Shown piece by piece: positions 28,810 to 49,831 of a stretch of 64,000 nucleotides of DNA. The notes beneath the pieces were generated by a model that was not told the origin of the DNA, searched no databases, and saw only the letters and a list, made by a program, of their open reading frames with translations. The position numbers were made by a program, and so were the translations under genes. The stretch covers positions 11,133 through 75,132 of the forward strand of contig JBGGMJ010000158.1 in the NCBI GenBank assembly GCA_041288095.1, written 5' to 3'. Every line of letters starts with the position of its first letter. Within the stretch, counting starts at the first letter, position 1. This DNA comes from Myxococcota bacterium (GTDB lineage Bacteria > Myxococcota > XYA12-FULL-58-9 > JALHOP01).

Positions 28810-29719
28810 CGGTCAGGCGAGGCGCCGCGAGCGCCACGCCGATGCCTCCCAAGACCGCGGCACCGCCGAGCACGAGTCGCACCGTCGGGTGCTCGCCGAA
28901 AGCGAACACCGCGACGCCGGCGGTGATGACCGGCTGCAGGTTCATGAACATGAGCACCTGCGTCGGGCTGAGCTTGCTGAAGGAATACGACCACAACAGC
29001 GACATCAGCGCGCCGCCTAGTGTGCCGAGGAGCACGATCGCCGTGATGGTGCTCGAGGTCAGTGCTCGCGCCGTGGCGGTGAGATAGTCCCAGTCGGTGG
29101 CGATGGCCGCCGGCAAGAGCAGCACGGCGGCGCTCGCCATGCGGTAGACGGCCACGGTGAACGGCGCGTAGCGTGTAAGGGCGCGCTTCTGCAAGAAACC
29201 GCCGAGCGCCATGCCGAACGCCGCGGCGAGAACGACCGCGTCGGCGACCAGATCGCCGCTCACCGCCAGGTCACCGTTCGACGGCCAGACGAGCACGATG
29301 ACGCCGGCCAGAGTCGCGGCCGCGCCCAACAGCTTACGTAGAGAGATGGGCTCGGCGCGCAAGAGGATGCCGAGCCCCAAGCTCCACAGAGGCGTGGTGG
29401 CGAACAAGATGGAGACGCGCGCCACCGGACTTTTCGTGAGCGCGTAGGCCAGCCCAACGGTCGTCAGGCAGAAGGTCATCAGGCCGACGAAGGCGAGCGA
29501 CGGTAGGTCGCGTGCGCTCAAGCGCATCACCTTGGCTCGGCCCATCGCCATGCCGCAGGCGAGCAAGCAGCCCGTGCCGACCAGATAGCGCAGGCAGCCC
29601 AAGGAGACGGGAGGGACTTCCTTCACCGCCACCTTGAGCAGGAGCGTCGACATCGACGCGCACAGCGCCGCCCCGAGGCACGCCAACAAGGCCACGAACT
29701 CTTTGGCAGTGCGAGTCAC
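28778..29719 (-). CDS. DMT/EamA family transporter, last gene of the PKS operon
   Basis: About 10 hydrophobic segments in two repeats, NLQPV..FGE. GTGA overlap with the PKS stop. Confidence 0.88.
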   Translation of the reverse strand: MTRTAKEFVALLACLGAALCASMSTLLLKVAVKEVPPVSLGCLRYLVGTGCLLACGMAMGRAKVMRLSARDLPSLAFVGLMTFCLTTVGLAYALTKSPVARVSILFATTPLWSLGLGILLRAEPISLRKLLGAAATLAGVIVLVWPSNGDLAVSGDLVADAVVLAAAFGMALGGFLQKRALTRYAPFTVAVYRMASAAVLLLPAAIATDWDYLTATARALTSSTITAIVLLGTLGGALMSLLWSYSFSKLSPTQVLMFMNLQPVITAGVAVFAFGEHPTVRLVLGGAAVLGGIGVALAAPRLTVIAVPSQRLP

Positions 29720-48800: not shown

Positions 48801-49831
48801 AAGCCGGCGCGGTCGAGGGCGCGCAGCGCTTCGTGCATGGCGTCGAGCTCGGACGGTCCGGTGCTCGAAGCGAGCCAGGTCTCCTTCGGATGCAGCGCCT
48901 TGCCGATCTCGAGCAGGTGGTCGCCGGGGCCGATCTCGATGAAGATGTGATGGTCCTGAGCCACCACCTCGGACAACGCTTCGCTGAAGCGGAGTGGCTC
49001 CGACGCTTGGCGCCCGAGCAGGTCGTGCTGCCGCGTGTCGTCGCGGCGCCGCGCCAGCAAACCGCCGGTGACCGACGAGGCCATCAAGGTCCGCGCCGCC
49101 TTGAAGGCCGCCTGCTGGAGGTCCTTGGTGAAGGCGTTGGTCACGGCGCGCATGAGCGGCGAGTGCCAAGCCCGCTGCGTCTGCAGTGGACGGCAGATCG
49201 TGCCCTGTGCTTCGAGCTTGTCGAGCAAGACCGTCATCGCGGACACGGTGCCCGACAGCAGGACTTCGTTGGCGTGATGCACGGAAGCGACGAACACGTC
49301 GTTGGCCAAACCCAGCGCCGCGATCACGCCTCGGGCCTCGCCGGCGTCGAGCTGCGCCAGAGCCTGGCGTCCCGCCGCCGCGAGATCGCGGCTCAAGCGC
49401 CCGTGCGCGACGACGAGCCTCCAGGCATCCTCGAACGACAGCGCGCCCGCCGCGCAAGCCGCGGCAAACTCACCCGGCCCGTACCCGAGCACGATGTCGG
49501 GCTCGACGCCCCATGAGCGCCACAGCTCCACCAAGGCAACCTGCATCGCGAAGAGCACGGGACCTTCGCAGTGGGCGGCGCTCCCCTCGGGACCGTCGTG
49601 AACGCCCTGGCCCAGCGCCGAGACGACCGCCAGACCAACATCGGCGTTCGAGCGCGCGCAGCGGGACACGGCTTCGCGGAAGACCGGATGAGCCTGATAA
49701 AGGCTGGTGCCCATCCCGGCGTACGCCGAACCGTATCCGCTAAAGAGGAATGCGACCTTGGGAGCCTTTTTTTCCGACATCGCCTGGTCAGGTCTCGCTG
49801 TGGAGTTTTCGCCCGCGTGAATCGGCGCCAT
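42848..49831 (-). CDS. Type I PKS 1: AT0 - ACP - KS - AT - DH - KR - ACP
   Basis: Loading AT GYGPG (no Ser), ACP GLDSM, KS DTACSSS/EAHGTGT/IGHTE, AT GHSIG with RAFHS, DH HRVQDKIILP/HPAVLD, KR GGLGGLG/LDD/YAAAN, ACP GLDSL. Start may be 49780. Confidence 0.93.
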   Translation of the reverse strand: MAPIHAGENSTARPDQAMSEKKAPKVAFLFSGYGSAYAGMGTSLYQAHPVFREAVSRCARSNADVGLAVVSALGQGVHDGPEGSAAHCEGPVLFAMQVALVELWRSWGVEPDIVLGYGPGEFAAACAAGALSFEDAWRLVVAHGRLSRDLAAAGRQALAQLDAGEARGVIAALGLANDVFVASVHHANEVLLSGTVSAMTVLLDKLEAQGTICRPLQTQRAWHSPLMRAVTNAFTKDLQQAAFKAARTLMASSVTGGLLARRRDDTRQHDLLGRQASEPLRFSEALSEVVAQDHHIFIEIGPGDHLLEIGKALHPKETWLASSTGPSELDAMHEALRALDRAGLTVKVPAQATVAAREVPAAEPVEERETRGPVVEHTPLAETLVGAPVNERVELLRAQIRNQVGRVLGLSQPKPLKLDQPFRELGLDSMMTIDLWVRLSKDIGRELDPALAFTYPTIDALAEYLSRESFATRIASAGKRRASDDDIAIVGMACRFPGGADTPEAYWQLLHEGVDAVSEVPRDRWDSRKLYDPDQSAAGKTITRWGGFLREVDRFDAGFFSISPREAISMDPQQRLLLETAWEALESSGHSPQQLRGSDTAVFVGITYADYYQRWGSLAERPGRYDLYAATGNTNAITAGRLSYFFDFRGPALALDTACSSSLVALHMANAALRRGEASLAMVAGVNLILSPETTVNFSRARMMSPDGRCKTFDARANGYVRAEGCATIIVKKLSDAVRDGDRVLAVVRGTAVNHDGRSNGLTAPNALAQQALVRDALDAANLSPNDVNYVEAHGTGTPLGDPTELQALRAALTDETPRETPLVVGSVKTNIGHTEAAAGLAGLMKVVLAMQHDEIPKHLHFENLNPHIPTAGLPIQVPARALPWPRGAKPRVAGVSAFGFSGTNAHVVLQEAPLPPAERVTVERPLHVAAVSARSPEALRRVAQRLGERLRDSTEDLGNVCYTANAGRAHFEHRAAMVVGSTAELREKLAVIADGGVPAAAQVGQIVSGSDRPRVAFLFSGQASLYRDAGRDLYETQPTFRRDLDRCAEILATKLDVPLLDILFPKTEAQAGLILETRYGQPALIAFELALAGLWRSFGVEPDAVLGHSIGEYAACCVADAMRLEDVLPLVTTRGALMQRVAEGRMVSVTADEATVRELLRGQHEGLAVAAINGPKSIVVAGPVAGVVAFAADLERKHIKSKMLDSTRAFHSSMLDPMLESFEVEAGRVEVEQPRIPVVSNLTGQMYWRRKDELPNGGYWKRHAREAVQFAAGVKTLVDHGCTIFIEIGPRATLLGPASECVDRPDLAWLPSLRRSAGAWEQLLESVASAYARGVEVDWQRFDADYSRRRVALPTYPFERQRFWVDPPNMSGEKSPQSGSAHPLLGQRTDSPLGIVQFDVELGGRNLGYLADHRVQDKIILPAAGSLEMAVAAAEAAGGKRRWVLENIRFVKAVVLSESQTRPLQMVFSAPVGDSREFQIFSRPSDLRVWEGGAWTLHAAGKVAPATGEDETVEPLASLRARITRRVEASQHYATMTAMGLKYGPAFQAVTESFHDEERGEVLVRIAERADELAAEPHVLHPAVLDAVFQAFSAAGDKRIASSGSFMPINIERLTVYRGLRGPAWGFARVRQGGTAAGSRILLGDVFLFDDSGALVASASGMRSLRVEELVIDDALREPRELIHDVVWRRLPPASAQVGSQRWLVFCDHGGIGDALADLLEQRGHRCVRVSTGERFAPTRNGFELRVAEADDYAALVQATAHGSEPLHGVVHLASLDASLANSQEAPLDLEAGHVSGCRSAVLAAQALVRAGVSPQLVLVTRGAQAVGVAVGLPPAVGQAAMLGLGRALQVEHPELQCRRIDLAPGSDATQAAHWLAGELAVTGETEVALRSDGRYAPRLVARTTIGPRMPFSCRPDGTYVVSGGLGGLGREVSKWLVQRGARHLLLVGRRDPSAAEDAFIAELRASGAQVHVSSTGVTDPVAVRKLFADVKATMPEVRGVVHVAGLLDDGIFAELTWPKMTRVMAPKVQGAWNLHINTVGLPLDFLVFFSSVSALWGAAGQANYAAANAWLDSLAQARRAAGLAALSVNWGPWNAGMAATGGAKAERRWRDQGLAMMQAREALPALEHLLVEKATHAAVFAIAERGRFLEHQQRGFRTLFDEWEHEAPPASSAPQPISIAKPAAKASGLIEQLAAAPGSQRLPLITGFLQKIVRKQLGGDASQRLSPQQPFMDMGLDSLMLANVRRELMAAVGKSLPVTIGFDYPTLEALATHLADDVLGIEKSAPEPAPAAKEDVVAALLDRMATLSDSEAEALLAAKLGGLRE

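Follow-up and report, generated by a model that had tools for sequence, protein, structure and literature searches.

How does a modular polyketide synthase (PKS) obtain its building blocks when most of its acyltransferase (AT) domains appear to have lost their active sites? Textbook modular PKSs load every building block via an AT, located either within the module or on a free-standing protein. The question is raised by a biosynthetic gene cluster of a Myxococcota bacterium, carried on a stretch of 64,000 nucleotides (the window; positions 11133-75132 of contig C158, JBGGMJ010000158.1, assembly GCA_041288095.1), in which four PKS proteins provide five AT positions. We propose, with a probability of about 0.5, that this is a working line of cis-AT descent that has abandoned AT catalysis at four of the five positions and receives carrier-bound extender units through a ketosynthase III (KSIII)-like transacylase. 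The proposal is based on active-site residues, gene context and one biochemical precedent, and the delivery of the carrier-bound extenders by the KSIII-like protein is a step that we infer by analogy.

The domain composition of the four proteins, with ketosynthase (KS), ketoreductase (KR), dehydratase (DH), acyl carrier protein (ACP) and thioesterase (TE) domains, is as follows.

42848..49831, minus strand: PKS1, a dead loading AT (AT_L), ACP, KS, live AT, DH, KR and ACP, from Pfam matches and the translation
40227..42851, minus strand: PKS2, a KS with Cys-His-His, KS-AT linker, truncated AT relic, post-AT linker and a C-terminal tail, without an ACP
32037..38072, minus strand: PKS3, the KR-ACP end of module 2 followed by KS0-AT0-DH-ACP (module 3), from Pfam matches and the translation
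29716..32040, minus strand: PKS4, a KS with Cys-His-His, linker, AT remnant, post-AT linker and ACP, without a TE domain

To describe the state of the ATs, each was aligned residue by residue to the solved CurL AT, and the motif coordinates were computed from the translations.

48866..49765, minus strand: loading AT-like domain, full length, GYGPG at 49472-49486, Arg replaced by His, RAWHS kept; 152 bits against CurL
45812..46801, minus strand: PKS1 module AT, GHSIG at 46496-46510, Arg and RAFHS present, KSK at the RXR position; 287 bits against CurL
40347..41174, minus strand: PKS2 truncated AT relic, GRGIG at 40863-40877, small subdomain and the His of HAFHS deleted, LPTYAFQRQRYW kept
33546..34490, minus strand: PKS3 full-length AT-like domain, GSGLG at 34206-34220, Arg replaced by Leu, GTQPN in place of GQGSQ, LPFHS kept; 99 bits against CurL
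30046..30450, minus strand: PKS4 AT remnant and post-AT linker, residues 531-665

A complete AT active site was found only in the module AT of PKS1; none of the other positions combines the Ser, the Arg and His, and a complete fold. An earlier reading of the window, made from the sequence only, had named this domain as the sole GHSxG AT, and the alignments to CurL agree; the four motifs GYGPG, GHSIG, GRGIG and GSGLG that it had listed were recovered from the translations at exactly the same positions, and the PKS3 domain proved to be full length with GSGLG, as it had described. The small, ferredoxin-like subdomain is present in the loading AT, the PKS3 AT and the PKS1 AT and absent from the PKS2 AT, which matches CurL in two pieces of 27.5 and 33.9 bits (61 in total), skips CurL residues 703-762 (about 60) and has Val, as aligned, at the position of the carboxylate-binding Arg. 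The short spacing from which the loss of this subdomain had been proposed was confirmed, with 27 residues between LSLADAL (residues 674-680) and PPRILLASN (708-716). The description of the PKS4 AT as a remnant also held: ~135 residues extend from the KS-AT linker to the ACP and end in the post-AT linker LPTYPFQRTRFW, and residues 531-715 (window 29896-30450) gave no Pfam match, Acyl_transf_1 included, even at an E-value of 10. Both deletions, in PKS2 and in PKS4, are in frame and leave the post-AT linker intact.

The Ser of the AT motif is kept in 52 of 53 aligned motifs from 52 database relatives and absent from three of the four AT-like domains of the window, which suggests that Ser loss at this level is rare and beyond chance. 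No acyl-serine intermediate can form on these three AT-like domains or on the one remnant, although the other domains of the line look functional. The active sites of KS1, KS2 and KS4 read Cys-His-His, as had been claimed for the KSs of PKS2 and PKS4; Pfam matches were obtained for the two KRs and the two DHs, and the Ser is kept in all five ACPs, as read from the translations. Dead ATs in a line with open frames and intact KSs, KRs, DHs and ACPs imply that the acyl units should arrive by another way.

We also considered whether the lesions result from an assembly error, and this was excluded by near-identical proteins of other assemblies, which carry the same lesions. GRGIG, GSGLG and the change in the KS are all retained in these proteins, of which P0005 and P0076 differ from PKS2 at 1 of 874 and 1 of 724 residues, respectively, and P0079 from PKS3 at 5 of 2011. 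Since independent assemblies contain the same motifs, the dead ATs are no artefact of assembly. The graded decay of the ATs that had been described earlier is only in part correct. The scores do fall stepwise (287, 152, 99 and 61 bits, then none), but they do not record one recent decay, because the truncated form of PKS2 is colinear in a Latescibacterota protein of 41% identity.

Module 3 does not add to the demand for extender units. Its KS is distinguished from the others by a change within the active site:

34806..36065, minus strand: KS of module 3, ECAGTGS (35127-35147) where the other KSs have EAHGTGT, with the first catalytic His changed to Ala

The DH of this module gave Pfam matches of 79 and 62 bits and has the motif HGNFGIPVFP, and its ACP has LGLDSL; the KS His and the AT Ser are lost while the DH and the carrier are intact, as expected for a KS0-AT0-DH-ACP unit of the ClyE/NocP type. 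Because KS3 lacks the first His, module 3 is a non-elongating unit that requires no extender, and the view of the sequence-only reading, that a single AT has to provide for the whole line, overstates the need. An external source is required only by module 2, module 4 and the loading ACP. In the chlorosphaerolactylate and nocuolin clusters, ClyE and NocP are described as a KS without its His and an AT without its Ser, followed by a DH and a carrier (PMC7923214), and module 3 of PKS3 has the same domain order with the same KS and AT lesions. The two differ in that ClyE is stand-alone with an AT0 of ~227 residues (PMC7923214), whereas here a full-length AT0 of ~315 residues is fused behind KR-ACP.

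Module 2 is split over two proteins, with the KS on PKS2 and the KR-ACP on PKS3, and together with module 3 it resembles a dehydrating bimodule; module 3 would act like the dehydrating second half, which could dehydrate the product of module 2. Split modules and KS0-DH-ACP units or dehydrating bimodules are hallmarks of trans-AT lines, and both traits are present in this line. In PKS4 the order KS, linker, post-AT linker and ACP is likewise trans-AT-like, and its LPTYPF aligns with a solved trans-AT bimodule. The line differs from trans-AT systems in having one live cis-AT, in the lack of a free-standing AT in the window or assembly, and in its KSs, which are nearer to CurL. All four KSs score closer to the cis-AT CurL than to any AT-less KS. 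In the rankings against solved structures that were run separately for KS2, KS3 and KS4, CurL gave 585, 480 and 504 bits, respectively, and the best AT-less KS 381, 366 and 403 bits. The earlier suggestion of a trans-AT-like character does not extend to the KSs, since this ranking places them with CurL by about 99-204 bits rather than in a trans-AT group, and based on this placement the line would be of cis-AT descent.

The cluster also contains genes of carrier-bound extender synthesis. The following five genes are central to our proposal.

59917..60783, minus strand: 3-hydroxyacyl-CoA dehydrogenase (ZmaG/FkbK-like), first gene of the array; Pfam 3HCDH_N 164 bits, 3HCDH 112 bits
58842..59981, minus strand: FkbH of 379 aa (ZmaN-like glyceryl-ACP synthase); TIGR01686 276 bits (cut-off 146.65)
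58567..58830, minus strand: discrete ACP of ~87 aa; PP-binding 24.6 bits (cut-off 20.8), with matches to NCBIfam ACP models
39050..40240, minus strand: member of the acyl-CoA dehydrogenase family (ACAD; ZmaE/FkbI-like); Pfam Acyl-CoA_dh_1, _N and _M
38085..39053, minus strand: KSIII-like protein with Cys116, His279 and Asp284, a candidate ACP-to-ACP transacylase; FabH fold, family alignment

The cluster is predicted to encode the complete hydroxymalonyl-ACP gene set (FkbH, ACP, 3HCDH and ACAD), with no O-methyltransferase among the window open reading frames (ORFs) scanned. The same four functions are known from zwittermicin (ZmaN, ZmaD, ZmaG and ZmaE) and butyrolactol (PMC5355916), and the pathway is also set out in PMC7489565. 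In the known systems an AT passes the carrier-bound unit on; these ATs, ZmaF and ZmaA-AT, read GYSFG or GYSLG with a hydrophobic residue at RXR (PMC4207774), whereas here no AT is competent to do so and a KSIII-like gene stands beside the ACAD gene. In the ZmaA-AT paper, RXR-position and xAFH patterns are tied to CoA-bound malonyl and not to ACP-bound units (PMC4207774). The live AT of PKS1, with GHSIG, KSK at RXR and xAFH, appears to follow the CoA-type pattern, and the only Tyr-type AT motif of the window, GYGPG, is without Ser. ClbG-type ATs do comparable extender loading elsewhere.

Alignment of 40 members of the KSIII-like family (35-71% identity to the window protein) revealed that Cys116, His279, Asp284 and Asn249 are invariant in all 40, and that in 37 of them Val, Ile or Leu stands where FabH has its His, at the third residue before the Asn. 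The family thus combines Cys and His-x4-Asp without the His-Asn pair of FabH, as KSIII acyltransferases do. The precedent is provided by ChlB3 and CerJ, which share the FabH fold and a Cys nucleophile, with a His and then an Asp five residues on (Cys113, His296 and Asp301); ChlB3 shifts an acyl group from one ACP to another via the Cys (PMC9573744). Family profile positions 222-321 match residues 238-338 of the ChlB3 chain, and this offset, which is the only argument for the correspondence, places His279 and Asp284 at most one residue away from His296 and Asp301. The likeness is limited by low similarity (48 bits for ChlB3 and 32 for CerJ) and by the function of the known members, which move aromatic or malonyl groups in tailoring (PMC9573744). 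A KSIII-like acyltransferase feeding extenders to PKS modules was not found in the literature covered.

To place this protein in a wider gene context, we scanned metagenomes and fetched 54 loci with a KSIII-like gene, of which the 25 of at least 6 kb were counted, with flanks of up to 10 kb. FkbH was present in 21 of these loci, ACAD in 20 and the dehydrogenase in 14, and in all 20 the ACAD gene directly adjoins the KSIII-like gene. NRPS (nonribosomal peptide synthetase) domains were found in 22 and a PKS KS in 15. The common order is dehydrogenase, ACP, ACAD, KSIII, FkbH, an A-T protein and a KS-x-ACP-C protein. In one locus (L043), Pfam matches gave dehydrogenase, ACP, ACAD, KSIII and FkbH, then KS, linker, 255 aa, ACP and C, with no Acyl_transf_1 match. 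A Streptomyces californicus plasmid has the same gene set, with its sole AT match 47 kb off within another large frame, and Alkaliphilus transvaalensis has an ACP, a KSIII and an AT-less KS-ACP-C module. No intact AT was detected in any of the 25 metagenome loci, within flanks of up to 10 kb and with no baseline for KS-bearing loci in general; when seven AT queries were run at an E-value of 1e-3 against all 56 loci, each of the 15 hits was a relic or a post-AT linker. The 17 KSs of these loci (15 from the metagenomes and one from each of the two named loci) all have Cys-His-His, therefore those modules should need an extender. By contrast, two cassettes that are served by ATs are without a KSIII gene. 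The butyrolactol gene table lists a hydroxymalonyl cassette with ATs and no KSIII gene (PMC5355916), and the 23 annotated features of the zwittermicin plasmid include an 'ACP S-malonyltransferase' and no 3-oxoacyl-ACP synthase. The earlier idea that extenders may arrive via a discrete ACP or the KSIII-like protein thereby gains real comparative support from the pairing of the cassette with AT-less KSs. In one of the metagenome loci (L059:14824-15756) a second KSIII-like copy lies ~4 kb downstream of the first.

Based on these comparisons we tentatively propose, at somewhat less than even odds, that Cys-His-x4-Asp KSIII-like proteins encoded between ACAD and FkbH constitute an unrecognised class of extender loaders, which transfer hydroxymalonyl units from ACP to AT-less or relic-bearing PKS modules. 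It is conceivable, though we would not call it probable, that such loaders replace ATs of the ZmaF/ZmaA-AT type in many soil bacteria as well as in this cluster, so that in cis-AT lines a non-AT loader, and no trans-AT, would permit the loss of ATs.

In the line itself, module 1 would take malonyl-CoA through its own AT (AT1), and ACP2 and/or ACP4 would receive an FkbH-derived, carrier-bound hydroxymalonyl-type unit. In a ChlB3-like ping-pong reaction, the discrete ACP would hand this unit to Cys116 of the KSIII-like enzyme, from which it would move on to the module ACP. The loading ACP would be filled by an FkbH directly or via a second small carrier, module 3 would require no unit, and only AT scaffolds or linkers would be retained at the abandoned AT positions. 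The terminal beta-keto chain on PKS4 would be released by a type II thioesterase or by another enzyme. Four further genes of the cluster have candidate roles in these steps.

57794..58561, minus strand: type II thioesterase-like alpha/beta hydrolase with GHSLG, a candidate from a motif reading only
51837..52826, minus strand: 329-aa protein without a sequence family, with a possible double-hot-dog fold (ESM Atlas)
51522..51827, minus strand: weak candidate for a second discrete ACP, GLDSLG; PP-binding 14 bits, E 0.061, below the cut-off
49847..51562, minus strand: second FkbH, at most 571 aa long, of which ~215 aa form an N-terminal extension; TIGR01686 284 bits over residues 217-542

The second FkbH gene lies directly upstream of PKS1, with the weak ACP candidate and then the 329-aa gene further upstream; its likely start is the GTG at 51529 behind GGAGG, and its match to FkbH_N reached only an E-value of 0.057. 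The 329-aa protein gave no sequence match in Pfam, NCBIfam or the PDB, and neither the 56 loci nor the rest of the genome contains a homologue. In the ESM Atlas it had a feature score of 0.95 and TM values of 0.77-0.80 to clusters of the LnmK family and of 0.68-0.71 to thioesterases. LnmK (PF18238) is a bifunctional acyltransferase/decarboxylase of the double-hot-dog fold with Tyr62 as its nucleophile, and its mechanism is described (PMC11350588); by this modelled likeness the 329-aa protein may be another non-AT loader. The second FkbH, the ACP candidate and the 329-aa protein may together supply a starter to the loading ACP. Homologues of the thioesterase-like protein occur near the KSIII cassette in L046, L075 and L092.

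Several points weigh against our proposal. The role of the KSIII-like family is suggested by sequence and gene context alone, and its profile is nearer to the condensing FabH (92 bits) than to DpsC (57), ChlB3 or CerJ. A CerJ-like tailoring acylation would fit the Cys-His-Asp triad equally, and both hydroxymalonyl and glyceryl fit as the transferred group. The cassette is split in this cluster: ACAD and KSIII belong to the PKS operon, and the three remaining cassette genes lie 19 kb upstream. Since the related loci are NRPS-PKS hybrids with distant KSs (32-41% identical to all four window KSs), the link to modules 2 and 4 is made by analogy. The contrast with AT-containing cassettes is limited to two clusters; the flanks extend to 10 kb, so that a distant trans-AT or a housekeeping AT may load those modules; and the absence of ATs lacks a baseline of how often KS loci in general are without an AT within 10 kb. 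A specific resemblance of the cassette-linked KSs to module 4 was also considered, and no preference was found.

Whether a canonical AT could act in trans was addressed at the level of the genome. The assembly (5.85 Mb, 212 contigs, 90% complete) contains no canonical stand-alone AT in the window or elsewhere by PF00698 and tblastn, each of which returned six AT places: the four domains of the window and the two halves of another PKS AT. This confirmed the earlier claim as far as canonical ATs are concerned; as a general statement that the window has no standalone AT it is too wide, given that a candidate acyltransferase of the KSIII type and two FkbH loaders are encoded there. The other PKS AT belongs to a second PKS or hybrid gene that is broken within the AT at two contig ends (C150:37590-41630 and C55:35835-38537); this AT is intact, with GHSVG and HAFHS, and malonyl-type. 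FabD, named earlier as a possible loader, turned out to be a weak candidate. A stand-alone FabD above the TIGR00128 cut-off was found in none of four genomes of the genus and in only two of 22 genomes of the order. In the remaining 20, the top FabD-like hit is part of a longer frame, of 744-3,183 aa (below 1,000 in two and at least 1,700 in 18), which in one genome of the genus also contains a KS, like PfaA. In the present genome this large FabD-like protein is cut off at a contig end, and the MAT domain of such a PfaA-like protein may still act as a loader.

We also searched for proteins related to the PKS2 relic. The nearest relative besides its own copies is P0006, a protein of 1,414 aa from a marine Latescibacterota, which is 41% identical over 835 residues and colinear through the same truncated AT, with GHGVG as the motif. 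P0006 has an additional C-terminal AT with GYSVG (residues 1058-1407); the Tyr-Ser form of the motif is reported for the ATs that accept carrier-bound extenders, ZmaA-AT and ZmaF (PMC4207774). With the PKS2 relic as the query, HMMER found 13,705 matches at an E-value of 0.001 or below among 1.84 billion representative proteins, and of the best 149 other proteins inspected, 19 carry a total of 20 Ser-less AT-like segments (GCGLG, GDGIG, GHDVG, GQGVG, GRGTG and others), of which 19 have the PKS2-like truncation. Of the 19 proteins, 14 also have an intact GHSxG AT on the same polypeptide. The relic-bearing proteins come from, among others, Nostoc, Planctomycetota, Terracidiphilus and Gammaproteobacteria; in Nostoc sp. 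C052, a plasmid cluster combines five full with two truncated ATs and lacks a stand-alone AT. As judged from these sequences, Ser-less truncated AT relics are common in public PKSs and not peculiar to this cluster. Two of the proteins, P0121 and P0108, look like AT-less lines that still bear relics, and P0107 has two full-length ATs with GHGVG and GYGVG. A single origin of the truncated form was not supported by an AT tree of 47 rows and 248 columns, built with a quick method and poorly resolved (4 of 44 inner branches starred); the truncated state requires at least six changes, and in two cases (SH-aLRT 87-88) a relic pairs with the intact AT located on the same protein. The branches leading to the relics are long, with end branches of 1.8-2.5 for the AT-like rows compared with 0.84 for AT1. 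For the PKS3 AT, 642 hits at an E-value of 1e-10 or below were uninformative, the best being generic multi-AT actinomycete PKSs of 27-32% identity.

The strongest competitor of our proposal, although we consider it rather unlikely, is that a canonical AT malonylates ACP2, ACP4 and perhaps the loading ACP in trans. The source could be AT1, the PfaA-like KS-MAT protein, the AT of the second PKS or a trans-AT missing from the assembly; in that case the KSIII-like enzyme and the FkbH sets would be used for other steps, such as the starter, a tailoring acylation or release. Because intact ATs so often stand beside relics in public PKSs and in the Nostoc cluster, loading by a neighbour is a natural general reading, and it is in agreement with module 12 of irumamycin, whose AT with GHG is proposed to share the AT of a neighbour (PMC11672594). 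That module resembles those of our line as a Ser-to-Gly AT in a cis-AT-type module that is still obliged to elongate; the differences are that one of 13 ATs is dead in irumamycin (PMC11672594), compared with three dead and one deleted of five positions here, and that our cluster adds carrier-bound extender genes and a KSIII-type transferase. The 10% of the genome that the assembly lacks, the intact malonyl-type AT broken over C150 and C55, and the coincidence of the right edge of the window (base 64000) with the contig end, beyond which a trans-AT is possible, all leave room for such a source. Set against this are the lack of a stand-alone AT in the assembly and of a stand-alone FabD above the cut-off in the four genomes of the genus, and the location of AT1 on another polypeptide than ACP2 and ACP4. 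With a canonical AT as the loader there would also be no explanation for the conserved occurrence of the KSIII cassette beside AT-less KS modules, and the hydroxymalonyl-ACP set would be without an ACP-recognising AT, the one Tyr-type motif being devoid of its Ser.

It is less probable still that the KSIII-like protein is a releasing enzyme of the tetronate type, which would join glyceryl-ACP, made by the 571-aa FkbH and the small ACP candidate, to the beta-ketoacyl chain of PKS4, with extenders supplied by a canonical AT as above. This would explain the missing TE domain, given that the final KS-ACP module would leave a beta-keto thioester. Tetromadurin (Mad7, Mad8 and Mad16) has two FkbH/ACP pairs, one for methoxymalonyl-ACP and one for glyceryl-ACP, and a FabH-like enzyme for ring formation and release (PMC7489565); the present cluster likewise has two FkbH genes, a FabH-fold enzyme and no TE domain. 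Unlike the tetronate cassettes, however, the KSIII-like family travels with two hydroxymalonyl dehydrogenases, the adjoining ACAD and, in 14 of the 25 loci, the 3-hydroxyacyl-CoA dehydrogenase, which together oxidise glyceryl to hydroxymalonyl. Most related loci have a single FkbH, no Agg4/Agg5-type genes, which are common in tetronate cassettes, were detected among the ORFs scanned, and the family is without the FabH His of Claisen chemistry. Finally, a decaying, non-functional remnant in which the dead ATs are the first visible lesions seems to us very improbable. The long end branches of the AT-like rows would fit it, and so would a recent arrival without evidence of long retention, as the PKS2 AT region revealed no orthologous cluster when 21 further genomes of the order were searched, and the KSIII-like protein had no homologue among 400 other Myxococcota genomes; beyond near-identical copies, nothing orthologous to the PKS2 AT region was found among 5.8 billion protein clusters. 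Yet all 18 genes of the array are open without a frameshift, and third-position G+C is 0.80-0.90 in the array genes listed (the LolA-like, thioesterase, ABC ATPase and ACP genes not being in the list). Neither the PKS2 nor the PKS4 deletion breaks the reading frame or reaches into the post-AT linker. The triads of three KSs, the two KRs, the two DHs and the serines of five ACPs show no damage, and a loss restricted to AT active sites is unlike neutral loss. The truncated AT form recurs in a protein of only 41% identity and has thus been retained for long.

Cis-AT lines with dead ATs, and KS0-AT0 modules, have been published before (PMC7923214, PMC11672594). In the literature covered, outside which most subscription journals lie, we found no line with four of five AT positions dead, no description of the breadth of truncated AT relics in public data, and no KSIII-like gene in a hydroxymalonyl or methoxymalonyl cassette beside AT-less modules. 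If extender delivery by the KSIII-like family is true, it would explain a group of AT-less KS-ACP modules, at 17 loci with Cys-His-His KSs and no AT nearby; it would provide a new engineering part for hydroxylated polyketide positions, and it would be one route by which cis-AT lines lose their ATs. Given how common Ser-less relics are, mining tools that call every AT-like domain active will mispredict products.

The biosynthetic array as a whole consists of 18 minus-strand genes running from 60783 to 28778, with intergenic gaps of -65 to +16 nt and a single larger overlap that is an artefact of an over-long ORF call. The cluster extends to 60.8 kb of the window, beyond the PKS span of the sequence-only reading. 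The order is 3-hydroxyacyl-CoA dehydrogenase, the 379-aa FkbH, the small ACP, the type II thioesterase-like protein, an ABC ATPase, two FtsX permeases, a LolA-like protein, the 329-aa protein, the candidate ACP, the second FkbH, PKS1, PKS2, ACAD, the KSIII-like protein, PKS3, PKS4 and an EamA transporter. The 379-aa FkbH is 58.5% identical to the FkbH of zwittermicin plasmids of the Bacillus cereus group, which is high for phyla so distant; because of this identity and of the absence of the KSIII-like gene from the 400 other Myxococcota genomes, horizontal acquisition of the cluster is suggested.

Two further groups of array genes encode membrane-associated functions.

52843-58412, minus strand: LolA-like protein, two FtsX permeases and ABC ATPase, mid-array, between both FkbH sets
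28778..29719, minus strand: EamA-family transporter, final gene of the array; Pfam EamA 129 bits, 4-nt overlap with the PKS4 stop

The LolA-like, FtsX and ABC ATPase genes probably form a system for export of the product.

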